DNA of 60,199 bases from a virus. Lineage: Duplodnaviria; Caudoviricetes. Each line of letters opens with the position of its first letter. Position 1 is the first letter of the stretch. Location: IMG/VR virus record IMGVR_UViG_3300027805_000014, positions 1 through 60,199 of that record; one strand, 5' to 3'. Below, piece by piece: positions 1 through 60,199 of this stretch. Below the pieces are notes generated by a model that saw only the letters and a list, made by a program, of their open reading frames with translations, made no database searches and was not told the DNA's origin. Both the position numbers and the translations under genes were made by a program.

Positions 1-274
1 CTTCTTCTGCAGTAACAACCAGCTGACCTCCCTGAAGAACATCCACAAGATCATCAAGGAGATAAATGGTGTATTTTACTGTCACGGCAACCCAATCAAG
101 GAAGGTCTGCTGTATATCCTGCTTGTAAAGGGGGTAACAGAAGTAAGTACCCCATTCCCAGACGCAGATGAGATCATCGACGAGTACCTTGAAACAAATC
201 CATCTGGGTCAATTCGGGCCGCCCTTGACGTGCAACAGCTGCTCTCAGACGCAGACGTGGAGTATCCGAGATGA
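1..274 (+). CDS. 3' part of a variable LRR protein (last repeat + C-terminal cap); continues in frame from 59883..60199 if the window is circular
   Basis: Frame 2 reads FFCSNNQLTSLKNIHKIIKEINGVFYCHGNPIKEGLL...DADVEYPR, stop TGA 272-274 overlapping the next ATG (ATGA); near-identical to 271..798. Confidence 0.85.
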   Translation, partial: FFCSNNQLTSLKNIHKIIKEINGVFYCHGNPIKEGLLYILLVKGVTEVSTPFPDADEIIDEYLETNPSGSIRAALDVQQLLSDADVEYPR

Positions 275-798
275 AGCTACTAGAGATAAAACAGAAGTCA
301 GTTGCCGACCTGAAGATCAAGTACACAGGCGGTAGCTTCTTCTGCCACTACAACCAGCTGACATCCCTTGAAGGTGCCCCATCCCATGTAGGTGGCGGCT
401 TCGACTGCTACAGCAACCAGCTGACCTCCCTTGAGGGAGCACCATCCCATGTAGGTGGTAACTTCAGCTGCAGCGGCAATAAGCTGACCTCCCTTGAGGG
501 AGCACCATCCCACGTAGGTGGCGGCTTCTTCTGCAGTAACAACCAACTGACCTCCCTCAAGAACATCCACAAGATCATCAAGGAGATAAATGGTAGATTT
601 TACTGTTACGGCAACCCAATCAAAGAAGGTCTGCTGTATATCCTGCTTGTAAAGGGGGTAACAGAAGTAAGTACCCCATTCCCAGACGCAGATGAGATCA
701 TCGACGAGTACCTTAAGACAAACCCATCTGGCTCAATTAGAGCAGCGCTGGACGTGCAGCAGTTGCTCTCAGATGCAGACGTGGAGTATCCGAGATGA
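271..798 (+). CDS. Variable LRR protein (4 x 21-aa repeats + cap), MKLLE leader
   Basis: Repeat LTSLEGAPSHVGGxFxCxxN(Q/K) with 63-bp period; xFxCxxNxL matches the LRR core. Confidence 0.85.
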   Translation: MKLLEIKQKSVADLKIKYTGGSFFCHYNQLTSLEGAPSHVGGGFDCYSNQLTSLEGAPSHVGGNFSCSGNKLTSLEGAPSHVGGGFFCSNNQLTSLKNIHKIIKEINGRFYCYGNPIKEGLLYILLVKGVTEVSTPFPDADEIIDEYLKTNPSGSIRAALDVQQLLSDADVEYPR

Positions 799-1151
799 AG
801 CTACTTGAAATTGTTCGCTCTGATTGGCCACTTGCAATGTCTATGACTAAAAAGCTCATAGACAATGGCATAAAAGTGGTGATGCAGACCAAAGACGCTT
901 TTGGTGGGGAGCTGTGGGGAGAAATAGTAGAAGTTGGTCTGGCAACTCAACCTTTAACTAGAAAAAATGCCTTCTTTGAAATTGGTTACTTTGAGTTAGA
1001 CGAAAAGACACAAGAGCCACTGCAACCAAAAATAGCTGAGAGCACGTCTGGTCCAAGAGAAGAATTTGAACAGGCAAAGTTGAGTAAACAGAAAGATGGT
1101 TCATTTATTTTACACCTGCCGTTTATCCCAGGTGATGGAGAATCAGTATGA
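795..1151 (+). CDS. Hypothetical protein with MKLLEI leader; distant paralog of 1533..1874
   Basis: ATGA-coupled to the LRR gene; first six residues identical to the LRR genes; PLAMSM/PLALSL similarity. Confidence 0.7.
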   Translation: MKLLEIVRSDWPLAMSMTKKLIDNGIKVVMQTKDAFGGELWGEIVEVGLATQPLTRKNAFFEIGYFELDEKTQEPLQPKIAESTSGPREEFEQAKLSKQKDGSFILHLPFIPGDGESV

Positions 1152-1531
1152 CCACCAGAGCTTTATACAGGGGATTTTCTACTGCTTTCCATAAGGAGAA
1201 TCCAAGCAAGGGCTTCATGACAGCTAATGTTGAAACTGTGAAACGCGATCTTTTAAACCATATCTGGACGATACGGGGCGAGCGTGTTATGCAGCCAAAT
1301 TTTGGTACAAGCATACCACTTCTTGCCTTTGAGCCGCTTGACACCAACACGATAGCAGTAATTGAAAGAGATCTGAGAGAAGTTTTCGCTTATGACCCTC
1401 GAGTAGAACTAAAGGAACTGGTGGTAATGGCGCTCCCAGACAACAACGCGGTTATTGCTATGGCTGATCTTTTCTACAAAGAACTCAACGTAACAGAAAA
1501 GCTTAAGCTAGATTTTCCAGTAGGTCAGTAA
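1148..1531 (+). CDS. gp25: Baseplate wedge subunit, gp25/GPW family
   Basis: LLNHIWTIRGERVMQPNFGT..LAFEPLD and YDPRVEL motifs typical of gp25. Confidence 0.9.
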   Translation: MTTRALYRGFSTAFHKENPSKGFMTANVETVKRDLLNHIWTIRGERVMQPNFGTSIPLLAFEPLDTNTIAVIERDLREVFAYDPRVELKELVVMALPDNNAVIAMADLFYKELNVTEKLKLDFPVGQ

Positions 1532-11900: not shown

Positions 11901-14900
11901 AATACGCTGTTGTCTAAACACTCACTTGCGCTGCTTGGATTTAACAACAAAAAGTACTTTAATGATCTTGACATAAATGATAAGTCCCAGTTTAACTTTT
12001 GGCGCGGATTAGTTCAATCAAAGGGAACTAATCTTTCAATAGACGCGTACCTCAACAACAACAGATTTAAGGATGCACGGCTTGATGAGTACTGGGCATA
12101 TAAGGTCGCCGAATATGGTGACGCTCGCCAGAAGACGTTCCCTGAGCTGAAGCTGCAGGTAAATGACACCCTACAGCAGTTTACTCTTTTGCAGTTTGAC
12201 GCTCCTTCTTTCAGCTCAAGCGATGGCGAACTGCCAGGTCAACTCGTCAACTTTAGTCAAATAAGCAGGTTTGATGAGAGCAGATGGTTCTCTATTGAGG
12301 ATCTAGATCAAGACACGTTCTTTAAGGCTGAACCTGTAGGTTCAATCAGCAAGCAGGTTTTAGTTGGAGAGATAGTTAATCTTCCATTCATTGCTGATGC
12401 CACTGACATTTCTGGTGTTGCGCATGAGAAGCTGAACGCGACCACGATAAAGGCGCTTGCTCAAGGAAATATCAGCGTTGTTGGATATGGGCCAGCCACG
12501 CCTAGGTACAACCCAGTAAAGCTGTTCAACTTTGTAGACGACGCGCTGGTTGAAGAAATTGCATTTTGGCACCCAGCTATAGGACAGCAAACACCAAGCG
12601 CCATAGAGGGAATAAACACGATAAGCAGCATCAACCCTGCTAGATACAACTACTCAACTCTTGTCGTAAACAATAACTCATATGATCCACTAAGGCCATG
12701 GGGTGATAGAGAAGTAGGTCGAATTTGGTTTGATACAACCAATTTATCATACATTCCTTACTACGATGCCAAGATTTTTCCAAGCAGAGCAGAAAGACTA
12801 TCTAGATGGGGAGCTCTTGCTGATTTTGCGTCAATAGATGTGTATGAGTGGGTTAAATCGTCAGTTCCGCCAAGTGAGTATAATGCACGAGCATTAACAG
12901 ATGCTGGCAACGCGGACATCAGTTCGTCTGAAAAGGCGTCAGGCGAAGTTGCCCTAGAGGAGCTTTACTACCGTGACAGGGAATGGTTTATCAGGCCAGT
13001 AGCTTGGTCATTCTCGCCAACACCACAGGATATTGACTGGGGAAATAAGCCTCCAATGAAATACAGTGGTGATGTTGTCGGTGAAGCAGGGCTGACGATA
13101 AGTGGAACAAAAATTATTCTTGAAAGTGGTAAGTTCTTTGATTATGATATTGCCGCTGGTGACAAAATTGGAACTTGGCAGTATGGCGACACACCATCAC
13201 CATTATCTGAGGGAACTCTTAATGATACCTTTCAGCTTTTCCTTGATGGAACTACACAGCAAAGCGCTTCTAATTTTTCGCTGACAGTAGAGCCTATTGG
13301 TTATCCCGAAACGCGCATGTATGGGACGGTATTTGTTGAGGCACTTCCAGTTAGCGTTACCCAAATAAGAGATACAGATGGCGCGCAAACTAACCAATGG
13401 GATTTTAGCTACAGCATTTCTATCTCTAATGAAGCCGGCCAAACTGAAACGGTTGTAGCATACGTGGTAAGAGTGGCTGATACTAACACCGACAGTACTC
13501 CACCTACAGAGCCATCAATAAGCGTTGTGCCTGGACAGACATTCACCTATGATTTCCCACTTTCCGGTTTAAGATTCACCGCGGTGTACAACGGCAGCGC
13601 ATCTTCAGTTCAAGCTGGTGTTATATCTTCTTCTTTGCAAACAGCATTTGATGGACAATTTGCATGCAAGGACGCCGTCACAGTTGAATGGTTAATACCA
13701 GCTGAAGATGGTCGATACACAAATGATGAGGAGGATCCGCTATTCGCCTTTAATCAAAGCATAGGATGGCGCGTTTGGGCAGTTCCAACACAGCAGCAGC
13801 TAAATGTTGACAGTAGACAGCCAAAGTCAAGTTGGAAAGCATTTATTGGGAGTTTAATGCCATTCTCTCCAACATATGATCAGCTACAGGAAGCTGTTGC
13901 TTATCAGCAGTCGCCGCTGACTCTGAACAATGGTGTTTCAATTGAGAGATACTCGCCAAAATGGAGTGAATGGAAAGTTCTAAGAAACGTAAGAAAAACT
14001 GAAACAGCTGTAGAGACAGCTCCTGTGACATTTAACGCGTCAGATTTTAGCATATCTAAGTTTGACGCAAATAAAACCGCTGTGTATGTGAATGGTATTT
14101 CACAGCTACGTTCCTCGTTTGAAATTTCAGGTTCTCAGCTAACCATAAACTCTGTACAAAGCGGATCTAGAGTTGATGTCATAGTGGAGAGGTATGAGCC
14201 AACCCAGGATGAACTTGAATTTAATCCAGAAGTTGAAGATGATTACTCTGTCCAGCGCCAATACAAGAAGGACTATGAGTATGTTCAGGTTCAGCAGCGT
14301 GACAGAGATGGCAATCTAGGAACTACCTACTACTACTTCTGGGTGAAGAATAAATCTACAACTTCTTCGGCTAAGAAGATGTCGATTCAGCTTATCGCCC
14401 AGCAGCTACGTGACGGGCCTGCGAACTACCTGACATTCCAGCACATTCTACCACCGGAGAATGGTTTACCGTGGAGATATGATTCAATAACAATCGCAGG
14501 CCTATCCTACGTGGTAACTAAAGACAACACGTTTAAGCTAAGGTTTACTAGAAACTTTGCGCTTCGCGATGATCCAAATGATCTAGATCTGAAGAACACC
14601 CACACGGAATGGAGGTTGATGAGACCAGGACAAAAGAACAGAATACCTGAACGTCTTTGGATGAAGCTGATAGACAGCGCTGCAGGTATAGATGGAGCCG
14701 GCAATGAACTACCATCTCTCAGAAGACAGCTGTACGATGAAAGAAATGGAACAACAACGCGTTTTGGGTTTGGTACTGAACAGATCCTAGCTCCATCTAA
14801 TCTACTTAGGACGTCACTTGCCAGTGCCATAGTAAATACAAGATTGACTGTTGAGGTAAATGATGGAAACGTTCCAGATTTTATTCAGTTTATTGACAGT

Positions 14901-36131: not shown

Positions 36132-37490
36132 TTAGTTTATCTTTTGCCACATACGAATATATGTATTGGCTCCTGTGGTGTCAGCAAGATAACGTGTACC
36201 ATCGTCAAACACCAGTATGAACATATCTTCTGGTGGCATGTGTTTTACATTAACCAAAGGATGTGGTGGTTTAATTGAGTACCCGTAGATCTGTTCACCT
36301 GAATACACCTTGAGTTTCCCTACTGTATTTTGCAGTTTTCTTAGGGAAACGTCATTTAGATTGTCTTTTGCTGCATAACCACTGCCCTCAAAATCAGACC
36401 AATACGATGGTTTTTCAGCAAGCTTAACTCCCACTTCATCGGCTGCAGCCAGTTCACGAGAACCAAAAGCTTTAAGTAGACTTACCGGCTTCATGACAGC
36501 AGAAGCCTTTCCACCGTTGTAGACTTTTACAAGTTCACGAGCGAGTTTCTCATCAGAAGTAGTTGATACTACATGCCGCTTGTTACCCTTGAAGCCATAG
36601 ATGATACGACCATCTGCTTCAAATCTATCATATCCCTTTGGAACCTCAATATCTGGGTTTTCTACGCCCCTACCTTTACTGAAGTCAGCTTTGACGACTT
36701 GACCTTCAGCTACCTTGTTTTTACCAGCAAGGCCCCCACCAATCTGCTTAAGTAAGCTGTGCTTGTCACTCTTCTTGCCACTCTTCTTGTCACTTAGTTC
36801 TTGTTCTTCTTCACCTTCAGGTTCTTCTTCACCTTCAGGTTCTTCTTCACCTTCAGGTTCTTCTTCACCTTCAGGTTCAGGTTCTTCTTCACCTTCAGGT
36901 TCTTCTTCACCTTCAGGTTCAGGTTCTTCTTCACCTTCAGGTTCAGGTTCTTCTTCGTCTTCTACTGGGGTGGCGTCGCTTCGTTCCTCATCATCTACTG
37001 ATGCGATGGTTTCCATGTCATCATCGTCATCCAGATTGCCAATGTCTGAGGCATCATCTAGGTTGACAACATCCTCTGGTTCTGCTTCTTCACCACTAGG
37101 CGCGCCTTGTGGCCAAATGACGTCAACGATATCAAACTTGGCAGCAAGGTTGTTGATAGCTTCCTCTATGTCATCTTCCATACCAAGCATTTTCTTCATT
37201 TCAGCCTCAAAGGCATCTGCTTGGGCAGCATTGACGTAGACCTTAACTACCTCGCCGTCACTTGTCTCAAGGCCGTATAGAACTGTTTCTACTTCATCAT
37301 TAAGCTCATGCGCTTTTTCTAGATAGTTAGCAACATCAGAACCTCTAATCTTTCCGTCACTGTTGATGGTGTTTCTCATCAGATCAAACTTGACCTCAGC
37401 ACCTTTTCCTTTCATGTCAGATGTACCAGCATCTGAACCATCCGCTGTTGAAAGATCTTGCTGATTAACTATTTCAGATAGAAGCTTCAT
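36132..37490 (-). CDS. Putative head-internal protein, MKLLSE leader, long EPEGEE acidic repeat
   Basis: 452-aa ORF with an acidic low-complexity centre. Confidence 0.65.
   Translation of the reverse strand: MKLLSEIVNQQDLSTADGSDAGTSDMKGKGAEVKFDLMRNTINSDGKIRGSDVANYLEKAHELNDEVETVLYGLETSDGEVVKVYVNAAQADAFEAEMKKMLGMEDDIEEAINNLAAKFDIVDVIWPQGAPSGEEAEPEDVVNLDDASDIGNLDDDDDMETIASVDDEERSDATPVEDEEEPEPEGEEEPEPEGEEEPEGEEEPEPEGEEEPEGEEEPEGEEEPEGEEEQELSDKKSGKKSDKHSLLKQIGGGLAGKNKVAEGQVVKADFSKGRGVENPDIEVPKGYDRFEADGRIIYGFKGNKRHVVSTTSDEKLARELVKVYNGGKASAVMKPVSLLKAFGSRELAAADEVGVKLAEKPSYWSDFEGSGYAAKDNLNDVSLRKLQNTVGKLKVYSGEQIYGYSIKPPHPLVNVKHMPPEDMFILVFDDGTRYLADTTGANTYIRMWQKIN
36803..36955. repeat. Mixed 18/24-bp tandem repeat encoding (PE)1-2GEEE
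   Basis: TTCTTCTTCACCTTCAGG units, some with an extra TTCAGG. Confidence 0.9.
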
Positions 37491-39843
37491 TATCTTTTGT
37501 CCTATTTGGATTTTTAAACTTTGGCTGCTTCCAATCGCGCCTCTTAATCTTGAAAGTTAGTTTCTTTTCAAGTGGGGCAATTGCTGAGGCAGTCGTTGCG
37601 GTTGAAACTGTTCCAGAAGTTGCAGAAGTTGCAGAAGTTGCGGTAGTTCCAGAAGTTGCGGTAGTTCCAGAAGTAGAGGCAGATGCGGTAGCTTCACCGC
37701 CACCATCTTGTTCCGAAATCCATTTAATCAGTTTCATTTCTGACACCATTTGATAGTTTTGGCCGCTAGCATTTAAAAGCAGTTCATTTTGGATTGCCTT
37801 AATACGGACTAGCAGTGGCGAAGTAGGAATGAACTGCATGATGAACAGATACAGCTTTGAGAAAAACTTTACTTTTTCATCAAATGAAAGCTGCTCATAC
37901 CTAAATGCGCTGTCAAGGAGAGACGTGACCCTATCCATGTTTAAGCCTGGATATTGCTGAAGAACCGACAACGTTGTTCTGTGTTCTTCCCAGTCAATCG
38001 GTGTATCTCTGCCAAAGCTAAGGTCCATGTGCAGAAATCTCCACCAGTTAGCAGGAACTTTGCGGGTAAACTTAAAGATGTCCTTTGCAACCTTCTTACC
38101 GATTATCTTTTGGACTGCTGGAGTCCCAACTCTCCAAATTACGTATCCCCAGAAGTTTAATGGGGACATCTCTTTTGCCCACTTAGTTAGTCTACAGTAC
38201 GACTTATCCTTCAGCAGACGAATGCCATGCTTATCATCGCTTTTATAGATCACGGTTGACATGATGACGGTCGCAAAGTAGATGTTCAGAAGTGTCCAAC
38301 CGTCTTTGTTTTGATAATGTGATTTATCAGTGAGGAAAAGTTTTTCTGACAGTAAAGCTTCACTTAACTGCTCTTCTTCTGTTTCATGAACAGCCTTTGC
38401 TATTTTTCCATAAAGAACAACAGCAAGTTGTACAAGTGACTTTGCCGCCTTCACCTTTTGACCAAGTTCATCTAGATCCCGCTTGCTCTCCGCAAAGGTA
38501 GTTAGCGTCCTGCGAATGACCTCTGGTGAAAGCCCCATTGACTTACCGCTCTTAAGCTTAAGCTGGAAGTTATCCTTGTTAGCCTTGAAGTCCTTTAGAC
38601 TTGTTGCGAGCTTTTGTTTCGCGGTTTCAATCAAGGCAATAATCTTGCGCTGCGTTGCTCTAAAGTCATTCCCGCCTGTCAGCTCATTTGCCACATTTTT
38701 TATGGTTTCTTCTGGTGTTTTACCCTTGACGGTTAGAAATATCTTCTTCGCGCCTTGAGTTCTGGCAAGCTCTTTATTTCCAAGAAGATCTGCTATCATT
38801 ATCTTCAGCTCACCAATAAGTCCTCCCCTGCTTTCAAGAGGAGCTGACATGTCCGTCGTCCGTATCATAGAATTAATTGAGTTACGAACAGCGTGGTTGA
38901 ACTGGTTGATGGTGGTAAACAGGTCCTTGTCGACTATCTTAACCTGTTCCTCAGAACCGGGAGTACGAAGAACAACACCCTCTATGCCAATGTTCTCATC
39001 AGGAGTAAGATCATTTGCGGCTAAAGGCGATTTTGTCTGGTGAACGAACTTTGCAAGCAGTTCATTTTTGATAGGAAGCTTAAAATCAGTTAGAACCTTA
39101 GCTTGCAGTTTAGCTTTTAGTTCTTTTGCAGCAGGCCGGATGCTCTTGTCAAATGATCCTAGAGAGCTAGTTAACACATCAAAGTTAGTAAGCTTAGATC
39201 CTTCTAAATCTGCTTTCTGTTTTAGGAACTTATCAAGAGCAGCGAGCTGCTTAGAAACATTAACCTGATGAAGGGCGCCAGCATCAATTTTCTGCGCTGA
39301 TACAAACTGGAAGGTAAAATCTCTAGGCTCAACAATTAGATTTTCGCCGTCAACAGTATCTACAACCTTTGTTGAAACCTTAACTGTCTGATTGGACAAA
39401 CGCTGTGCAAGTTGATCAACCAGAATGTCTTCAGTTCCCTCAACACCTCTTATAAACGCAATGTAGTTTTTCCCACCAGCACCATACACTACGGCGTTTG
39501 GCTGCCGGCCAAACAGCACCTCAATTTCTATGGTATCTCCAGGTCTGATGATTGATTTTATTTCTGTCTCTTTAGCCTTAAGAGCCGCGAATGAAGCTCT
39601 GAACCCATTGTTAGCCGCAAAATATGGGTAGTCATCGACGCTGTAGATATTTTCAGCGTTCTTTCGCTTACCGGCTCTGCTGGTAAAAAGCTTACCATCT
39701 GCGTCAAGACCAAACCAGAGATTTGATCCGTCCAGTTTTTCTGTTGCCTGCATTTTTGTGATATTTGAGACAGCAGCAATAAACTGTTGGAGGTCAAGGT
39801 CCTCCAAATGCGATATTCCTTCAGTGATAAGATGTCTGTTCAT
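37474..39843 (-). CDS. Large protein with ligase/nucleotidyltransferase-like N-domain (DUF6267-like)
   Basis: SHLEDL, TEKLDGSN (motif I KxDG), IEIEVLF, IEGVVLR (motif IV), VKIVDK (motif V). Confidence 0.6.
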   Translation of the reverse strand: MNRHLITEGISHLEDLDLQQFIAAVSNITKMQATEKLDGSNLWFGLDADGKLFTSRAGKRKNAENIYSVDDYPYFAANNGFRASFAALKAKETEIKSIIRPGDTIEIEVLFGRQPNAVVYGAGGKNYIAFIRGVEGTEDILVDQLAQRLSNQTVKVSTKVVDTVDGENLIVEPRDFTFQFVSAQKIDAGALHQVNVSKQLAALDKFLKQKADLEGSKLTNFDVLTSSLGSFDKSIRPAAKELKAKLQAKVLTDFKLPIKNELLAKFVHQTKSPLAANDLTPDENIGIEGVVLRTPGSEEQVKIVDKDLFTTINQFNHAVRNSINSMIRTTDMSAPLESRGGLIGELKIMIADLLGNKELARTQGAKKIFLTVKGKTPEETIKNVANELTGGNDFRATQRKIIALIETAKQKLATSLKDFKANKDNFQLKLKSGKSMGLSPEVIRRTLTTFAESKRDLDELGQKVKAAKSLVQLAVVLYGKIAKAVHETEEEQLSEALLSEKLFLTDKSHYQNKDGWTLLNIYFATVIMSTVIYKSDDKHGIRLLKDKSYCRLTKWAKEMSPLNFWGYVIWRVGTPAVQKIIGKKVAKDIFKFTRKVPANWWRFLHMDLSFGRDTPIDWEEHRTTLSVLQQYPGLNMDRVTSLLDSAFRYEQLSFDEKVKFFSKLYLFIMQFIPTSPLLVRIKAIQNELLLNASGQNYQMVSEMKLIKWISEQDGGGEATASASTSGTTATSGTTATSATSATSGTVSTATTASAIAPLEKKLTFKIKRRDWKQPKFKNPNRTKDNEASI

Positions 39844-48720: not shown

Positions 48721-49680
48721 TTAGAACCTCAAGAGCTTATTGACCAGTGCTCGCTGCGGAGTAGGCACTTCCCAACCCATCGCCTCGAAGATACCATCGA
48801 GCTTTGCATCAATCATCTTCTGCTCAGTCAGCTTGGTGTCAACCGCGAAGTGCTCAGTAAACCAGCTCGGAAACTCATAGGCATCTGCCGGAAAGGCGAT
48901 GGACTTCAGACCATCAGGATTGCCCTTCAAGTAGAAGATGATGACCTTGTCTCCTGACTTCAGGAGCTTTGCGCCTTGCTCGTAAGTAGACACCAACCTG
49001 TTGTAGTTCATCGCTGCTCGAACATGCCCAGGTACATTCTGTGGACCATTGCCGGTGTTGAGCTTGCCTTGCGCAGGGTAACCAGCCCTCTGCCAAGCTG
49101 CATAGAAGGCATCAAGGTTGTTCACCTGCTTGGCAACACCCATCGTGAAAATGTCACCGTCCTTACCGAGCAGGTCCTTGCGCCGCCTATTAACGAACTC
49201 CTCAATTGTTGGGTAGTCCTTACCGTCCAAGAGAAGCCCCATTAGGTCCTTCAAGAACTGCTGGATGATCTTGGGAGTGTCAGCCTTCTTGATCTCAGAG
49301 CCCTGTGACTTGAGCTTGTCGACTGATGCACCTTCAAGGTCGACCACCTTTAGCACATATTTCTTTTTTGCTTGAAAGATGCCACGCTCTACAACTACCT
49401 CTCGCCCTGCCTTGATGAGGTTGTCGAAACCTGGTTGACAGTTGAACGACCGGCGCACGAACTCAGGAAAGCTGTCATTGGTCAGCCGTGCAGTCTCATC
49501 AGCAACAGCGACTGCCTCCTCCTTGTCGGAAGCATGCGTCTTAAAGTAACAGCTGTTGTGAACCAAGATACCATTTGCAAAAAAATACGGTGTTGTAGCA
49601 TCCTCCATAATGATATCGTAGACATACTCGTCGTTGAAGTCATCAAGCTGTTCTACATTTTTGACTTTTAGCCTTTTCAT
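48721..49680 (-). CDS. polB: Family B DNA polymerase C-terminal part, preceded by 42-aa split-intein C-fragment (49680..49555)
   Basis: YVYDI..PYFFANGILVHN|SCYF intein end; KKKYV, GSEIKKADTP, VPGHVRAA. Confidence 0.92.
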   Translation of the reverse strand: MKRLKVKNVEQLDDFNDEYVYDIIMEDATTPYFFANGILVHNSCYFKTHASDKEEAVAVADETARLTNDSFPEFVRRSFNCQPGFDNLIKAGREVVVERGIFQAKKKYVLKVVDLEGASVDKLKSQGSEIKKADTPKIIQQFLKDLMGLLLDGKDYPTIEEFVNRRRKDLLGKDGDIFTMGVAKQVNNLDAFYAAWQRAGYPAQGKLNTGNGPQNVPGHVRAAMNYNRLVSTYEQGAKLLKSGDKVIIFYLKGNPDGLKSIAFPADAYEFPSWFTEHFAVDTKLTEQKMIDAKLDGIFEAMGWEVPTPQRALVNKLLRF

Positions 49681-51218
49681 CTTAGGATCAACTTCAAGTT
49701 GCCACAATCAGAAATTCTATACCAGCCGGATGATAGCATATTGTCAGTTTCTGATTTACTTTCATCAAAATCTGAACCAAGAACGGTGGCAAGCCGGTGC
49801 TTCATGGTCTGGTAGCGCGTTAGCCGCTGTGAAGATTTGACCCACAGATAATTTGGTGCCGTTTGTGAAACGACGGAAAAACCAATCTGTTTATAGCCTG
49901 CGCCATTAGATATTCTCAAGTCAGCGAAGGATATTATGCTTCCTGGAGATGTTCTTCTAAAATGCGCAATTAGCCTAGAAAGACCACCGACCACCGCATC
50001 TTGCGCGGCGAACCTAATCAATTCAGTTTCCCTCTTTTTGTTGAACCTATTTTTACCAAAAACAGCCACCGCAACCACTTCACCGTCGTGCCGAAGTGCA
50101 GTGTACTTAGCTCCTGCCGCGAACCCTGAAAGATGAGTTCTTTCTAGGAAACTTCTTGCTTCAGTTGAATCTATAGTGACTACCTCACACTGCCGGGCAT
50201 GGATCTTCCGTAGCAGCTTTAGTTTTGCACGAATAATGTTAAAAACAATTTCAGGCTTTTCATTTATTTCAAAATCCCAAAAGTGTAAAAGTTGAATACC
50301 CTGTTGAGCAGCAAGTTTTGTCTTATCTAACAAAGAATGCTTTGCTCTAAAGTCATTGTGCCAATATTGTCCATTTACCTCTATGGCAATTTTATAATCT
50401 GGCAGCACAAAGTCCAGCTCTAAGGGTGAAATCACACGCCTACAATTTTCCCTAAATGGGATACCAAGCTGCTTCAAAAAGTCAGATATCACGCTCTGCG
50501 GTCTTGATCTTGGGGCGCACGTTGGACACACAGGAAGCTGCCCCTTTATCAGACGCTGCTCAAAACGCGTGCCACATTTGGGGTGCTGCCAGCCGTAAAA
50601 GTGACTCATCCCCTTCCACACTGGGGCTTCAGCAATTAAGCAGCCTGTAGCGTTAGCAATCACCTGCAACCGCCTATAAAATCCGTCACCAGAAAAAGAC
50701 TGCGATCTAGCTTCAGCCGCAATCTTTTTCACATATGCAGTGTGGAGCGGGTCTATTGAATATTTGGATTTTCTCGTCTGTTTTATTCTATCTGCAATTA
50801 CTTGAACCTGTGCGGGATTTTCCGCACCGTACCGTGTAAGCATCGTTTTCTTTTTCTGTTTTTGCACATCAGGAACAGCCATATTATGGCTGACACCATA
50901 TTTTTTCTGTAAGGTTTTTGCAGATTTTTGGTGCGTTTCTTTACTTGATAATGTGCATTTGGGGGAGCAAAAAGCTGCAAATTTTCGCTTCTTGAGACTA
51001 GGTGAGGTGAATTTCCCACAATTCAAACAGATGGGCCTTTCTGATACATTTAAAAGTACAGCTAAGAATTTTTCATCTGTGGTTTTAAAATCTCCCAGCT
51101 CTTGGTTTTTAAGAGACTTTTTGAAGCTTCTAACCTGTGCATTGGCAAATGGAACTTTTGCTGTACTTGGGACCTTATCAAGTAGAACCATTAGCTTATC
51201 GTGCAGTTCAGATATCAT
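49677..51218 (-). mobile_element. Free-standing homing-endonuclease-like gene inserted between the split-intein halves
   Basis: CLNC..FCSPKC, KKYGV/RYGA repeats, ELDF..IAIEVNGQYWH (PD-(D/E)XK/Vsr-like), C-terminal ARQC..ELIRFA..SFADLR..DCG domain; overlaps both pol halves. Confidence 0.82.
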
Positions 51219-53463
51219 TTTCTAAACAAATAAAATCATCAGAGGAAAGAATATCGGATGCTTTTACCTCAATCAATTCATCATTTCGTCTAACCATAAT
51301 GCTGTGATCTCCAGTAACTATCACTTCTTTGCCATCTTCGAGCGTTATCTTCCACTTCGGCTTGCTCACGCGGTGTCGATAAACTGCGCGTACAGGTTTA
51401 TGTTTGACACCATTTGTCGTAAAGCACGGGCTTGTTAGATTTTCAGATGTCGCAAACTGCTTATCACCACTTTCCCACTTCAACGGCAGCAGATTGAACA
51501 ACTCCTCTATGGTTGTATCTCCCGCCGATGAACGAACCATCGTCGTTCCATCAACGCTGTCAGTATCACCGTAGATGATGGTGCTTCCACCAGCAATGTA
51601 AACGTGAGCTGGCTTTCCATCTTCATCAACTGATGTCTGCTTCTGCAGCTTCATCTCAACATCAGGCTCAAGCAGCGAGTGAATGGTCTCCATCATGTGG
51701 GTCGTAATCTGGCGTCCGCATGCAGTTACAGATGCGCCCATCTCCTTTCGCCCAAACCTAAAGGCTGCGTTCAACAAAGCCCCGTAGGTACTGTTGAGCT
51801 GAATTTTTTTAGTGAGCTGTAGCAGGTCATAGTGCTCAGCTTGCCTCTCATATTCCGCCTTCTTGACTGGATCTTTCTCTTCCTTCGCAAGCTTGGTGTA
51901 CTTCTTCTTTTCAGCCTGGAGGCGCTTACGCTCTGCAAACCAGAATGTTAGCGTGTCTGCAACAAGACCCTGTCCAGAGCTTTGGTCAAAGACCGAGCCG
52001 TACGCTGATATAGCCCACTTCTTCTCTTTCAGTAAATGCCGCCACTGACTACCAGTAGCTTCAAAGATCTCACCGTCGTCGAACTTCAAGTAGTGCATCT
52101 GATCATCACCGCTGACCATGATGCCTCGCCAATCAGTCTCACCTTCCACGAACTGACCAATGAATTTCTCGGGAGAGATGTTGAGGGCACGAATAACAGA
52201 TGGGTACAGCGAGTTGATGTCAACCGAACCAATCCACTCGTGCATTCCGATGTGGGGATTAAGCACAAGCGCGCCCTCTACCTTCTCACCGTCAGTCATC
52301 ATCCGCTTGTCAGGGACGATGAGATTGTGGACGTTGTGGGCTCGGTTGGCGATACCTGTCTCGACGTAGCGCACCGTACCGAGGATGTTCTCGAAGAGAC
52401 AGGTATTCTCGTGCGCCATCTGGTTGACCAGCTGGATGAACTTGAACTTGGTATCTAGATCTACTAGACCCCCAACGTCCCGGAAATTATAGGCCACAAA
52501 TCGAGGGAAGTCATTCTTGTACAGCTGTTCAAGAGTGCCTTCGTAGTGGAGCTTCGCTAGCCCAATCTCCTCCTGTAGGATGTTGCCAAGTGAGTAGGAG
52601 GTCCGTCCTTCAAAGGTAAACTTCTTGAAAAGATCTAGATAGTCCAGATGAGTTCGACCGCTTAGCGTATACACCATTTCCTGAGAGCCAAAACGTTCAA
52701 CAAATCGTTGACGTGGCCCTGGGCATCCAATGAAGCACATCTTCTTAAGAAGGTGCTGTGCCTGCAGCTCAAGCCGGCGCACGATGTACGGAATATCGAA
52801 GAACTCTGAGTTCCACCCGCTGATGATGTCAGCGTCCTGGATGTCATCAAGCATGCACATCAGGAGCTCTGTCTCGTGACGACAGATCTTGATGATCGGT
52901 TTGTCACCCTCTCGAAGCTCGCCCTTTACAACGAGCGCTTGGAACTCAGCTTCAATGTCCTCAACGGTGCCGTTCCAAATGGTGCCATCTTCCTGAATTG
53001 GCGGAAGTACATAGGTCTTGTACTGACGTGTCCAGGACTGCCAGACAGTAACGGCGTTGATGCGGGCATAGGGGTTTGACGGACCAGCGAAGCCGATCTT
53101 CGAGGAGTAGTCCACCTCGATGTCGAGGAACGCGTAGTTGACTACCGGTGTGGGTAGGTCGTGGTACTCATTCATCAGCACCTTGAAGAGCGGTGGAATG
53201 TCGCTCTCGTACTTCACCGGGCACTGGCGCGCGCCCTGTTTGAACTCATCTTCCGTATCGAAAACCAGTTTTTCTAGCGCTCTCCCGTCAAGACCCTTGT
53301 ATGTCCCGGTCTCTGAAGGAACATAGAAATAATGCGGGGCTTTGAAGGTTCGACGCTTTCGTCCCTCCTCAGTACGTTCCCAGACAACAACAGCGTCATT
53401 GTCCCAGTCTCGGATAGCGCCAACGTAGTTAGGTTTAGTCATTCGCCAGTTGATCAACTTCAC
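51208..53463 (-). CDS. polB: Family B DNA polymerase N-terminal part, ending in 116-aa split-intein N-fragment (51558..51211)
   Basis: DIEVD, GWNSEFFD, YNFRD (exo); DINSLYPS, KIQLNSTYG, YGDTD|SVDG; intein block B VTGDHS. Confidence 0.93.
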   Translation of the reverse strand: MKLINWRMTKPNYVGAIRDWDNDAVVVWERTEEGRKRRTFKAPHYFYVPSETGTYKGLDGRALEKLVFDTEDEFKQGARQCPVKYESDIPPLFKVLMNEYHDLPTPVVNYAFLDIEVDYSSKIGFAGPSNPYARINAVTVWQSWTRQYKTYVLPPIQEDGTIWNGTVEDIEAEFQALVVKGELREGDKPIIKICRHETELLMCMLDDIQDADIISGWNSEFFDIPYIVRRLELQAQHLLKKMCFIGCPGPRQRFVERFGSQEMVYTLSGRTHLDYLDLFKKFTFEGRTSYSLGNILQEEIGLAKLHYEGTLEQLYKNDFPRFVAYNFRDVGGLVDLDTKFKFIQLVNQMAHENTCLFENILGTVRYVETGIANRAHNVHNLIVPDKRMMTDGEKVEGALVLNPHIGMHEWIGSVDINSLYPSVIRALNISPEKFIGQFVEGETDWRGIMVSGDDQMHYLKFDDGEIFEATGSQWRHLLKEKKWAISAYGSVFDQSSGQGLVADTLTFWFAERKRLQAEKKKYTKLAKEEKDPVKKAEYERQAEHYDLLQLTKKIQLNSTYGALLNAAFRFGRKEMGASVTACGRQITTHMMETIHSLLEPDVEMKLQKQTSVDEDGKPAHVYIAGGSTIIYGDTDSVDGTTMVRSSAGDTTIEELFNLLPLKWESGDKQFATSENLTSPCFTTNGVKHKPVRAVYRHRVSKPKWKITLEDGKEVIVTGDHSIMVRRNDELIEVKASDILSSDDFICLENDI

Positions 53464-58607: not shown

Positions 58608-58615
58608 CATAAATA
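58608..58615 (+). promoter_or_regulatory. Putative late promoter CATAAATA in front of the LRR array
   Basis: Exact motif 30 bp upstream of ATG 58646. Confidence 0.65.
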
Positions 58616-58645
58616 CGAAATGATTGCTTTCTGCGCTGATTAATT

Positions 58646-59299
58646 ATGAAGCTACTTGAGATAAAACAGAAGTCAGTTGCTGACCTGAAGATAGAGTACA
58701 CAGGTGGTGGCTTCTACTGCTACAACAACAAGCTGACATCCCTTGAAGGTGCACCATCCCATGTAGGTGGTAGCTTCTTCTGCGACCACAACCAGCTGAC
58801 ATCCCTTGAAGGTGCCCCATCCCATGTAGGTGGTGCCTTTGCCTGCTACAACAACAAGCTGACATCCCTTGAAGGTGCACCATCCCATGTAGGTGGTGAC
58901 TTTTCCTGCTACCACAACAAGCTGACATCCCTTGAAGGTGCACCATCCCATGTAGGTGGTGACTTCTTCTGCAGTCTCAACAAGCTGACATCCCTTGAGG
59001 GTGCACCGCCCCATGTAGGTGGTGCTTTCTACTGCAGCAGCAATAAGCTGACATCCCTCAAGAACATCCACAAGATCATCAGAGAGATAAATGGTGTATT
59101 TTACTGTTACCACAACCCAATCAAGGAAGGTCTGCTGTATATCCTGCTTGTAAAGGGGGTAACGTTGGTAGATACCCCATTCCCAGACGCAGATGAGATC
59201 ATCAACGAGTACCTTGAAACAAATCCATCTGGTTCAATTAGAGCAGCGCTGGACGTGCAGCAGCTGCTCTCAGACGCGGATGTGGAGTATCCAAGATGA
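58646..59299 (+). CDS. Variable LRR protein (6 repeats + cap)
   Basis: MKLLEI leader; six GGxFxCxxN(K/Q)L units. Confidence 0.88.
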   Translation: MKLLEIKQKSVADLKIEYTGGGFYCYNNKLTSLEGAPSHVGGSFFCDHNQLTSLEGAPSHVGGAFACYNNKLTSLEGAPSHVGGDFSCYHNKLTSLEGAPSHVGGDFFCSLNKLTSLEGAPPHVGGAFYCSSNKLTSLKNIHKIIREINGVFYCYHNPIKEGLLYILLVKGVTLVDTPFPDADEIINEYLETNPSGSIRAALDVQQLLSDADVEYPR

Positions 59300-59886
59300 A
59301 GCTACTTGAGATAACCCAGAGATCAGTTACCGACCTGAAGATCAAGTACACAGGTGGTGACTTCTTCTGCAGTAACAACCAGTTGGCATCCCTTGAAGGA
59401 GCACCATCCCATGTAGGTGGTGACTTCTTCTGCAGTAACAACCAGTTGACATCTCTTAAAGGTGCACCGTCCCATGTAGGTGGTCGCTTCTACTGCAATA
59501 ACAACAAGCTGACATCCCTTGAAGGTACCCCATCCCGTGTAGGTGGTGACTTTACCTGCTACAACAACCAGCTGGCATCCCTTGAAGGAGCACCATCCCA
59601 TGTAGGCGGCGGCTTCTTCTGCTACAGCAACCAGCTGACATCGCTCAAGAACATCCACAAGATCATCAAGGAGATAAATGGTGTGTTTTGTTGCCACAAC
59701 AACCCAATCAAGGAAGGTCTGCTGCACATCCTGCTGATCAAGGGGGTAACAGAAGTAGGTACACCTTGCCCAAAAGCAGACATGATAATCAACGAGTACC
59801 TTAAGACAAACCCATCTGGCTCAATTAGAGCAGCTTTAGATGTGCAGCAGCTGTTATCAGATGCAGACGTGGAGTATCCAAGATGA
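59296..59886 (+). CDS. Variable LRR protein (5 repeats + cap)
   Basis: ATGA-coupled paralog. Confidence 0.88.
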   Translation: MKLLEITQRSVTDLKIKYTGGDFFCSNNQLASLEGAPSHVGGDFFCSNNQLTSLKGAPSHVGGRFYCNNNKLTSLEGTPSRVGGDFTCYNNQLASLEGAPSHVGGGFFCYSNQLTSLKNIHKIIKEINGVFCCHNNPIKEGLLHILLIKGVTEVGTPCPKADMIINEYLKTNPSGSIRAALDVQQLLSDADVEYPR

Positions 59887-60199
59887 AGCTACTTGAGATA
59901 AAACAGAAGTCAGTTGCTGACCTGAAGATAGAGTACACAGGTGGTGCCTTTGTCTGCTACAACAACCAGCTGACCTCCCTTGAAGGTGCACCATCCCATG
60001 TAGGTGGTGACTTCTTCTGCAACAGCAACCAGCTGACCTCCCTCGAAGGAGCGCCATCCCATGTAGGTGGCGACTTCTGGTGCTTCAACAACCAGCTGAC
60101 ATCCCTTGAAGGTGCACCATCCCATGTAGGTGGTGACTTTTCCTGCTACCACAACAAGCTGACATCCCTTGAAGGTGCACCATCCCATGTAGGTGGTGA
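59883..60199 (+). CDS. Variable LRR protein, 5' part (4 repeats before the window end)
   Basis: ATG 59883 overlaps the upstream stop; MKLLEIKQKSVADLKIEYTGGAFVCYNNQL... Confidence 0.85.
   Translation, partial: MKLLEIKQKSVADLKIEYTGGAFVCYNNQLTSLEGAPSHVGGDFFCNSNQLTSLEGAPSHVGGDFWCFNNQLTSLEGAPSHVGGDFSCYHNKLTSLEGAPSHVGG

Follow-up and report, generated by a model that had tools for sequence, protein, structure and literature searches.

Why would a phage keep, one behind the other, several small genes built of leucine-rich repeats (LRRs) that differ at the same few positions of every repeat, and where might their products act? The question is raised by the window, by which we mean the whole stretch of DNA analysed, the 60,199 nucleotides of IMG/VR record IMGVR_UViG_3300027805_000014. 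The record is of the linear class with a CheckV completeness of 17%, and hence a fragment; its source is a large uncultured T4-like phage, represented here by this fragment only. The features concerned are listed below.

58608..58615, + strand: late-promoter-like motif CATAAATA, 30 nt upstream of the first LRR gene
58646..59299, + strand: LRR gene A, 217 aa, with MKLLEI leader, N-cap, six units, capping unit and C-terminal domain; LRR_4 score 26.9 bits
59296..59886, + strand: LRR gene B, 196 aa, five units; its protein was used for the AlphaFold model; LRR_4 score 28.5 bits
59883..60199, + strand: 5' part of an LRR gene, 105 aa with four full units, running off the record end
1..274, + strand: 3' part of an LRR gene, 90 aa (last unit, capping unit and C-terminal domain), beginning at the record edge
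271..798, + strand: LRR gene D, 175 aa, four units; 100% match to P0005
795..1151, + strand: 118-aa ORF without LRRs, ATGA-coupled to gene D, with the first 14 nt and the MKLLEI leader in common
1148..1531, + strand: gp25-like baseplate wedge gene (Pfam GPW_gp25, E 1.9e-09; phrog_261, E 8.2e-17)
37474..39843, - strand: ligase-like late gene, 789 aa, whose orthologue P0222 has an LRR module fused at its C-terminus

Gene layout at the two ends of the record

The original prediction counted at least four ATGA-coupled LRR genes. Three complete genes were recovered, and an ATGA overlap couples each LRR gene to the next one; the additional gene, running from 59883 through the record ends to 274, could not be upheld as such. 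Positions 59883-60199 and 1-274 do read in frame across the ends, but their junction into one gene is unproven, since this is a 17% linear fragment whose ends are repeat copies. The final 106 nt of the record (60094-60199) repeat 58857-58962 without a mismatch, and its first 22 nt occur again at 59361; with exact repeat copies at both termini, both ends sit in assembler-breaking repeats, and the same end topology was seen in the related record G002. A circular 60-kb genome was considered and not accepted, the record being linear, 17% complete and bounded by repeats. The safe tally is three complete and two partial LRR genes. Tandem Repeats Finder placed 63-bp arrays at 58702-59058, 59352-59642, 59939-60199 and 351-557 (scores 274-504), with the proviso that in a short-read metagenome assembly individual units may be chimeric.

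Attempts to anchor the locus by its surroundings gave little. The 118-aa ORF belongs to no Pfam or PHROG family, lacks significant likeness to a 113-aa ORF (E 0.34) and bears none to the 331-aa ORF of locus L008. A blastn search of the stretch against GenBank phages returned no match, and the upstream 203-aa protein used as query retrieved no related IMG/VR locus. In loci L008-L011 the LRR genes are 80-93% identical in DNA to those of the window although the flanks are unrelated, and the window's ends are therefore not placeable by synteny. Among sequence reads, only 5 runs share words with the window, at a fraction of at most 0.18. Matching Logan contigs are pieces of 80-270 nt from other samples; where they cover LRR genes, they diverge by 5-10% and so probably derive from other family members, and in one of 169 nt the start of the gene is preceded by a different upstream stretch.

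Repeat unit, predicted fold and family

The repeat unit comprises 21 residues (63 bp) and reads GG-x-F-x-C-x-x-N-(Q/K)-LTSLEGAPSHV. A recount of GGxFxCxxN units reproduced the 6, 5, 5 and 4 copies claimed at the outset, 20 in the window, with 17 distinct combinations of x residues. The claim of a constant scaffold likewise held: amino-acid variety is confined to x3, x5, x7 and x8 (6-8 residues each) and to the Q/K choice, every remaining column has one or two residues, and the Cys is invariant in 20/20 units. These units (4-6 per protein) lie between an N-cap, preceded by a short flexible leader (MKLLEI...), and a capping unit, INGxFxCxxNP, which varies at the same four positions and is followed by a helical C-terminal domain of ~60 residues. 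The x residues are drawn from a restricted set (D, N, S, G, Y, F and H), both in the window and in 1408 distinct units from 240 homologues. Columns 18-19, which here hold S-H directly behind the invariant Pro, vary family-wide (2.7-2.9 bits) and are fixed in the window array.

That these proteins are LRR solenoids, as first proposed, was borne out by an AlphaFold model together with Foldseek and profile matches. The gene B protein was modeled as a solenoid with a pLDDT of 95.9 and a pTM of 0.90; at the N-terminus, residues 1-3 stay under 50 and the mean over the first ten is 62. DSSP assigned a strand at F-x in every unit, with the x positions flanking the F-x-C strand; from this strand and LRR homology, the x residues are predicted to line the concave ligand-binding face. 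All 50 Foldseek matches listed were LRR proteins or LRR-containing entries, the top ones being LRR domains of IpaH, SspH1 and YopM and variable lymphocyte receptors, VLRs (E 2e-3 to 3e-2, probability ~1). Against solved structures, the family sequence profile matched InlJ (3bz5) at E 5.8e-17, SspH1 at 8e-11 and IpaH7.8 at 2e-5. Scores for Pfam LRR_4 (cut-off 27 bits) straddle the threshold, at 28.5 for gene B, 26.9 for gene A and 22.9 for gene D. Matches to the LRRNT cap, with E 0.049-0.26, reached only 11-14 bits where the cut-off is 25.8, and no Pfam family for the NEL ubiquitin-ligase domain appeared at E up to 1.

InlJ of Listeria monocytogenes, a 21-residue 'cysteine ladder' LRR, is the best solved sequence relative. 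It shares the short units, the Cys at the second core position (C aligns to C in 3bz5), the 21-residue length and the pattern x-C-x-x-N-x-L-T-x-L. InlJ is, however, a secreted, wall-anchored bacterial adhesin of 457+ residues, whereas the phage proteins, of 175-217 aa and without a signal peptide, are encoded in tandem arrays, each with caps and a C-terminal domain of its own. The type III effectors IpaH, SspH1 and YopM (Foldseek 5b0n, 3cvr, 9h6w, 4nkg and 4ow2, and profile matches) use short bacterial-type LRR units as the target-recognition module of proteins delivered to another cell; in contrast to these effectors, the phage proteins have no NEL domain and no secretion-system delivery, and the structural E values are only 2e-3 to 3e-2. 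The best structure matches in BFVD came from Marseillevirus, Mimivirus and uncultured Caudovirales (E 5e-7 to 1e-3). Like the 'Leucine-rich repeat' entries of the latter, the giant-virus families are multi-copy LRR families of large viruses, but those of giant viruses have eukaryotic hosts.

The family is widespread, with >6000 short homologues in metagenomes and >2400 longer relatives (2475 at E 1e-10 or better among 8000 scored). In IMG/VR, arrays of up to 14 genes show comparable focused variation, with about 100 hypervariable units per array at the upper end; near-duplicate loci (L109/L110, L143/L147/L148, L127/L130 and L131/L136) were kept in the counts. Comparison across relatives of the window and IMG/VR loci agreed with the expectation that arrays vary between related phages. 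Our literature search found no paper naming or studying this phage LRR family; a CASP16 paper and an anti-defence machine-learning preprint mention LRRs only in unrelated contexts. A bacterial precedent for the design does exist: in Flavobacterium psychrophilum, one locus holds up to 19 tandem genes, each with 2-14 LRRs whose hypervariable positions fall on one side, and bears strong signatures of recombination (Altae-Tran et al. 2020, PMC10392669). That locus has the same array and focused variation, the comparison being one of design and not of sequence; it differs in lying on a bacterial chromosome and in encoding cell-surface proteins with a secretion peptide and a type 9 signal (PMC10392669). 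Array plus focused variation, offered originally as the candidate novelty, is weakened as such, being already known from IMG/VR phages, where it is common, and from a bacterium (PMC10392669).

Neighbourhoods, leaders and candidate roles

The motif CATAAATA, which we take to resemble a T4-type late promoter, has 7 matches in the window compared to 1.67 expected (0/100 shuffles reach 7), and all 7 point to a gene start just downstream, one of them that of the 789-aa ligase-like gene. In the window, TATAAATA occurs at chance level, and across 74 IMG/VR loci NATAAATA lay upstream of 16/189 LRR ORFs versus 63/603 other ORFs, which is no enrichment. The LRR array is followed by the 118-aa gene, gp25 and a gp6-like 1216-aa gene (phrog_10646, E 1.2e-258) and so heads a baseplate run. 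The relative G001 has two LRR genes immediately behind a gp5-like hub gene (phrog_13211, E 2e-25) and another one gene downstream of its T4-type prohead protease (PF03420, 89.5 bits); a protease of this type (Peptidase_S77) is present in both G001 and G006. Elsewhere, LRR genes come directly after a portal gene (L125) or after a portal gene and one 203-aa gene (L012), and in further arrays ATPase, RNA-ligase or HNH genes stand between the LRR genes. None of the 80 loci retrieved with gp25 had an LRR gene within 8 kb. Within the window, a 17% fragment, no head, portal or protease gene was found.

The leader MKLL(x)E[IV] or MLLREI begins 8/60 ORFs of the window, non-LRR proteins included. Family leaders such as MKLKQLFES, MKYLLESS and MKKLLESLLEQ retain L-x-E, and 98/120 homologues have [LIVMF]-x-E within their first 16 residues. 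The motif is short and common, however, L-x-E occurring in the first 14 residues of ~11/52 other window ORFs, and the window leader has only 5-6 residues. In T4, gp21 cuts after L/I-x-E, the 10-residue leader of IPIII is enough for head loading, and the internal proteins form a diverse, polymorphic set (PMC9026906 and PMC3012670). IPI, IPII and IPIII are small, non-essential and polymorphic, with only the short L/I-x-E leader in common, are loaded into the head and ejected, and IPI blocks a host restriction enzyme (same two papers). A short leader with L/I-x-E, common to unrelated proteins, was found here too, as a motif only. The T4 leaders MKTYQEFIAE and MKTFKEF are longer than that of the window (MKLLE|I), the folds are unrelated, and the phage LRR proteins are known from their genes alone.

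Putting promoter motif, neighbourhood and leader together, we favour, tentatively and with a little less than even confidence, the reading that the LRR arrays encode a late, virion-delivered panel of variable binders, whose packaging, ejection and targets we infer. The genes would be transcribed late from the CATAAATA-type motif, with transcription reading into the baseplate genes, and their products, made late, would be loaded into the virion. The likeliest compartment would be the head, given an L-x-E leader of T4 prohead-protease form that is common to unrelated proteins. Delivered into the next host cell, each paralogue may bind a different fast-changing host molecule, defence proteins being the obvious candidates. 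Against head delivery, the window array adjoins baseplate and not head genes. The missing enrichment of NATAAATA and the arrays mixed with ATPase, RNA-ligase or HNH genes also count against the favoured reading, as does the homologue in Vibrio phage SRILMA, the one cultured phage examined, which is without an MKLLEI-type leader and has DnaB and small genes as neighbours.

The C-terminal domain offered few clues to compartment. Its 79 C-terminal residues are on average 92% identical among 8 copies. Folded alone, the domain reached a pLDDT of 76 with a best structure match of Z 3.2; it has no Pfam or PHROG function, and its Atlas feature scores stay below 0.9. A profile search gave 94 cluster representatives, none at 1e-10 or better, which look like small LRR proteins by their length (mostly 130-300 aa) and the C-terminal position of the match. 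The module also occurs in fusions. P0222 (1113 aa) aligns with the 789-aa ligase-like protein of the window in two blocks of 74% and 62% identity and ends in LRR units plus the C-terminal domain of the window LRR proteins; LRR modules are fused to this ligase-like protein in P0222/P0136 and to PcfJ (PF14284) as well. For ten of the long fusion proteins and for eight proteins encoded nearby, Pfam searches were uninformative.

These fusions, as well as the longer relatives, suit an alternative in which the proteins never enter the virion and serve as binders in the infected cell, where they would inhibit host proteins or provide phage enzymes with exchangeable targeting subunits. No signal peptide or membrane segment occurs in the LRR sequences, the closest solved LRRs include the substrate-recognition domains of IpaH and SspH1 effectors, and in Vibrio phage SRILMA the homologue lies beside DnaB. 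We nonetheless regard intracellular action as rather unlikely: the late-type motif and the structural-gene neighbourhoods speak against it, and a binder that appears only late in infection would have to reach the next cell to have much time to act.

It is also possible, though unlikely, that the proteins are virion-surface adhesins, the C-terminal domain docking on baseplate or fibres while the variable face binds the host surface, so that the array would be a host-range panel. Location in the tail or baseplate module, a criterion for receptor-binding proteins, was found both in the window (gp25/gp6) and in G001 (gp5-like hub), and the conservation of the C-terminal residues fits a docking role. 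LRR domains have been proposed as host-recognition parts in other phages (10.64898/2026.04.21.720040, Goslar preprint, and PMC10945359), and the tandem LRR proteins of F. psychrophilum are surface proteins (PMC10392669). The C-terminal domain, however, has no recognisable fibre or attachment domain, and G006 (116 kb), the closest baseplate relative, has no LRR gene, which makes the LRR protein dispensable as a baseplate part. The copies adjoining portal or protease genes, the leader common to non-LRR proteins and the fusion of the module to a ligase-like enzyme in P0222 also speak against a surface adhesin.

Selection at the variable positions and its meaning

Among the 20 window units, pN at x codons was 0.42 against a scaffold pS of 0.31 and pN of 0.03; at the x codons alone, pN/pS was 1.4. 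For 40 distinct units from the window and four related records, dN(x) was 0.68 compared to a dS(scaffold) of 0.34, a ratio of 1.98 (bootstrap 1.65-2.36), in agreement with the predicted excess of non-synonymous change at these sites. In 52 pairs of units with at most 2 differences per 51 scaffold nt (89 in total), 224 non-synonymous changes but only 3 synonymous ones fall in the 12 x-codon nt. The scaffold dN/dS of ~0.1 is to be read knowing that the unit regexes used for family, selection and array counts fix or restrict several scaffold columns, so that scaffold amino-acid variety is bounded by construction, an effect absent for synonymous counts and for columns 0, 1, 9, 11, 14-16, 18 and 19. 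Judged from these codon comparisons, the rest of the protein is under apparent purifying selection. The dN(x)/dS(scaffold) ratio could be overestimated if gene conversion has evened out the scaffold.

Units A3 and C3 are 100% identical, and for most units the nearest relative lies at another position, in another gene or in another phage. Unequal recombination among units and genes would alter unit number and shuffle units between paralogues, and selection would diversify the four side chains flanking the F-x-C beta-strand. As read from the sequences, the diversity is that of germline paralogues and appears to stem from recombination and selection. None of the outcomes named in advance as fatal to the original prediction (variable residues buried or scattered in the model, no excess of non-synonymous change at x sites, paralogues sharing one target in an array invariant across related phages) was found.

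Neutral drift with recombination, in which the x positions are merely unconstrained surface residues and there is no repertoire, could draw on the window pN/pS of only 1.4, obtained from four codons per unit and with low power, but is very improbable: dN(x) is twice dS(scaffold) with a bootstrap interval that excludes 1, near-identical units show a ~ten-fold excess of change, the residue set is restricted, and columns 18-19, variable family-wide, are fixed in the window array. Writing of the NNC variety by a targeted mutator, for instance a diversity-generating retroelement that works on AAC codons, is scarcely credible and was rejected: 72/80 x codons do end in C and vary at codon positions 1-2, but scaffold adenines are conserved (the invariant AAC beside x8, plus ACA, GAA, GCA, CCA and GTA), there is no all-AAC template unit, the reverse transcriptase RVT_1 was found in 0/5 records, all of them fragments, and third-base T (7/80 x codons) is about as frequent as in scaffold two-fold codons, so that NNC fits point change from NNC ancestors.

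The description 'antibody/VLR-like' is accordingly apt in one respect. Lamprey and hagfish VLRs (Foldseek 5uei, 3e6j and 2o6q) share the LRR solenoid and the focusing of variety on the x positions of the predicted concave face. VLR diversity arises by somatic assembly from cassettes, whereas that of the phage resides in germline paralogues; no somatic assembly was seen, nor any targeted mutator in the five fragmentary records, and LRRNT fell below threshold.

Taken by itself, the window is a modest gain, being one small, assembly-broken example; what it adds is the link to a late-type promoter motif, the link to a baseplate operon and, in a relative, the fusion of LRRs to a ligase-like late enzyme. 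Because the scaffold is small and cysteine-laddered, and accepts almost any residue at the four x positions of each unit, it would also lend itself to binder engineering. If the panel of delivered binders is real, phages would own a general, evolvable recognition scaffold for the arms race with their hosts, mirroring the LRR receptors of hosts. In its most far-reaching form, which we consider doubtful, large aquatic phages would maintain LRR binders as germline libraries, an array comprising up to 14 genes and ~100 hypervariable units. Tagged by a T4-like targeting leader, these binders would be loaded into the capsid and injected with the DNA, each would neutralise a different host defence or takeover target, and unit shuffling and positive selection would renew the library. 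Such a capsid-loaded library would be a viral counterpart of LRR-based immune receptor repertoires.

Focused variation in the LRR genes of the window

ORF reading identified three complete LRR genes and two partial ones, each overlapping the next by ATGA:

58646-59299 (+): gene A, complete LRR ORF, 217 aa
59296-59886 (+): gene B, complete LRR ORF, 196 aa
271-798 (+): gene D, complete LRR ORF, 175 aa
59883-60199 (+): 5' fragment of an LRR gene, running off the record end
2-274 (+): 3' fragment of an LRR gene, beginning at the record edge

Tandem Repeats Finder detected four 63-bp arrays in the window (scores 274-504). Read in register, these consist of the unit GG-x-F-x-C-x-x-N-(Q/K)-LTSLEGAPSHV, present in 6, 5, 5 and 4 copies, and the 20 units carry 17 distinct combinations at the four x positions, all as described in the original prediction. 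Each x column contains 6-8 different residues, compared to 1-2 in the other columns. The capping unit (INGxFxCxxNP) varies at the same four positions, while the remaining C-terminal 79 residues display a mean identity of 92% across 8 copies. This tandem pattern of focused variation is real, and far beyond chance.

The claim of at least four genes held in part. When the record end is joined to its start, a 196-aa gene is obtained in frame; however, the IMG/VR record, which the window covers in full, is classed as linear, with a CheckV completeness of 17%, its last 106 nt exactly duplicate 58857-58962, and its first 22 nt recur at 59361. Such repeats would halt a short-read assembler, and breaks in phased 63-bp units always close in frame. 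Since the ends sit in repeats and an in-frame join is expected anyway, we counted three complete and two partial genes. Of 2 related virus records, G002 likewise carries partial LRR genes at either end, and G001 has one at a single end together with an internal LRR pair. LRR genes are probably located at several loci in the phage genome, and some units in the assembly may be chimeric.

Fold, selection and spread of the family

The gene B protein, modelled with 35 homologues, was predicted with high confidence (pLDDT 95.9, pTM 0.90), uncertain only at its start (residues 1-3 below 50, first ten averaging 62), and has a two-residue strand at F-x in every unit. Its best Foldseek matches in the PDB were the LRR domains of IpaH, SspH1 and YopM along with several VLRs (E 2e-3 to 3e-2), and those in BFVD were LRR proteins of giant viruses and 'uncultured Caudovirales'. 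The sequence profile matched internalin J (3bz5, E 5.8e-17), whose Cys aligned with the conserved Cys of the phage units, as well as SspH1 (8e-11) and IpaH7.8 (2e-5); Pfam LRR_4 was borderline (28.5, 26.9 and 22.9 bits versus a cut-off of 27). F and C fall on core positions 4 and 6 of the LxxLxLxxN frame, and the x residues on positions 3, 5, 7 and 8, which are exposed on the concave face in established LRR structures. By homology, the x residues of the phage proteins would then be exposed on that face.

For the 20 window units, Nei-Gojobori estimates were pN 0.42 and pS 0.31 at x codons, compared to pN 0.03 and pS 0.31 in the scaffold. With 40 distinct internal units from the window and IMG/VR loci L008, L009, L010 and L094, dN at x codons was 0.68 and scaffold dS was 0.34, a ratio of 1.98 (bootstrap over units 1.65-2.36) that gene conversion homogenising the scaffold could exaggerate. 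The anticipated excess of non-synonymous change at x sites was thus observed. Among 52 near-identical pairs (at most 2 differences in 51 scaffold nt; 89 scaffold differences overall), the 12 x-codon nt displayed 224 non-synonymous versus 3 synonymous differences. Residue usage at x is restricted, with D, N, S, G, Y, F and H prominent. The x-codon pattern fits diversifying selection.

Shuffling of units is evident: unit A3 is identical to C3, genes A and C have identical N-caps, and for most units the closest neighbour is found at a different position, in a different gene or in another phage. A DGR is an unlikely source of the variation, given that scaffold adenines are conserved across units and that reverse transcriptase was found in 0 of 5 records, all fragments.

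The family is large. When 8000 candidates were scored, at least 6173 proteins of 96-307 aa matched at E <=1e-3, and at least 2475 longer ones at E <=1e-10, some fused to PcfJ-like or unknown domains. Confirmed family stretches in IMG/VR numbered 429. The 74 loci fetched contained 199 complete LRR ORFs, with at least three in 25 loci; one locus (L142) had 14 LRR ORFs, 101 units and 68 x combinations. The x columns were more variable than the scaffold in every one of the 35 loci that had 8 or more units, all four ranked among the five most variable columns in 25 of these 35, and family-wide entropy was maximal at x columns (3.1-3.4 bits). Phage relatives in GenBank were few (three Vibrio phages and four huge-phage records, leaving out four weak Listeria-phage matches), all unannotated or 'hypothetical', and our literature search found no paper on the phage LRR family. 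A tandem hypervariable LRR locus is published for a bacterium (PMC10392669). Taken together, these findings do not bear out the proposed uniqueness of an array combined with focused variation.

Genomic context and candidate modes of action

A leader of the form MKLL(x)E[IV] or MLLREI, as in the LRR genes, begins 8 of 60 window ORFs, non-LRR proteins among them:

795 (+): non-LRR ORF, 118 aa, starts MKLLEI
1533 (+): non-LRR ORF, 113 aa, starts MLLREI
35296 (-): non-LRR ORF, 237 aa, starts (V)KLLREV
37490 (-): non-LRR ORF, 452 aa, starts MKLLSEI

The first 14 nt of the 118-aa ORF are common to the LRR genes. Across the family, leaders are diverse but keep L-x-E near the start. The 452-aa ORF contains 18-42-bp tandem repeats (36762-36956). 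In T4, gp21 cuts after L/I-x-E, a 10-residue leader is enough for loading proteins into the head, the diverse internal proteins have only that leader in common, and one of them, IPI, inhibits a restriction enzyme of the host (PMC9026906, PMC3012670).

CATAAATA, a candidate for the phage's late-promoter motif, occurs 7 times in the window versus 1.67 expected, a count reached by 0 of 100 shuffles; TATAAATA was at chance level in the window. All copies are oriented with, and placed shortly before, a gene start, one of them 30 nt before gene A and another just before a 789-aa gene:

20305, 24606, 27729, 31086, 58608 (+): CATAAATA
33927, 39855 (-): CATAAATA

The LRR array is followed, with an ATGA overlap, by the 118-aa ORF, immediately after which come the gp25-like and, next, the gp6-like baseplate genes. 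G001 has two LRR genes immediately after a gp5-like hub gene, and a third is separated from an upstream T4-type prohead protease by one small gene. LRR genes follow a portal gene directly in locus L125, and past one 203-aa gene in L012. Since the 116-kb record G006, closest in gp25/gp6, has no LRR gene, the LRR genes are accessory.

Based on the CATAAATA and structural-gene context, the L-x-E leader and the parallel with T4 internal proteins, we tentatively rank first the possibility that the LRR proteins are virion-delivered binders, most likely loaded in the head and then ejected. Against this, the leader motif is short, the window, a 17%-complete fragment with baseplate and replication genes, has no recognised head, portal, terminase or protease gene, NATAAATA shows no enrichment upstream of LRR ORFs (16/189 versus 63/603 others in 74 loci), and a Vibrio phage copy adjoins DnaB and lacks an MKLLEI-type leader. 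A role as intracellular binders or targeting subunits ranks second and seems unlikely; that of baseplate adhesins, third, seems slightly more so.

Several neighbouring ORFs were also recorded. ATPase genes of phrog_1297 are interleaved with LRR genes in L140 and L104, a recurring pairing. In L094 (within G001), a 317-aa ORF (1689-2642, -) with a GIY-YIG-like start is flanked on one side by a portal-like C-terminal fragment and on the other by the gene for the prohead protease. L012 also has, several genes past its portal-LRR cluster, a 373-aa ORF (12445-13566, +) whose sequence is putatively TnpB/IS605 OrfB-like.

Other ORFs and implications for the family

37474-39843 (-): 789-aa ORF, KLDG and EGVVLR motifs in alignment with the homologous protein P0222
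5949-20298 (+): giant ORFs, 3083 and 1701 aa, after the gp6-like gene
51208-53460 (-): DNA polymerase ORF, phrog_262
49677-51215 (-): homing-endonuclease-like ORF, 512 aa, phrog_3339/559, overlapping and following the polymerase ORF

The 789-aa protein, for which no Pfam or PHROG family was found, looks ligase- or nucleotidyltransferase-like by its motifs. Its orthologue P0222 (1113 aa; 74% and 62% identity) extends beyond it with LRR units and a C-terminal domain as in the LRR genes, and a further orthologue, P0136, likewise has a C-terminal LRR module. The giant ORFs, the larger of which is 44% identical to an L016 ORF, presumably encode baseplate or fibre proteins. A further 328-aa ORF follows the homing-endonuclease-like ORF (region 48721-53463, -).

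Of the original prediction of an antibody/VLR-like binder repertoire, the binder-repertoire idea is supported to the extent of the LRR solenoid fold, the focused variation and the selection signal. The antibody/VLR analogy and host-defence targets are not supported. Arrays of hypervariable LRR genes are already published, as are accessory proteins delivered by phages. The array in the window, small and broken by assembly, belongs to a large, as yet unstudied family of phage LRR proteins.
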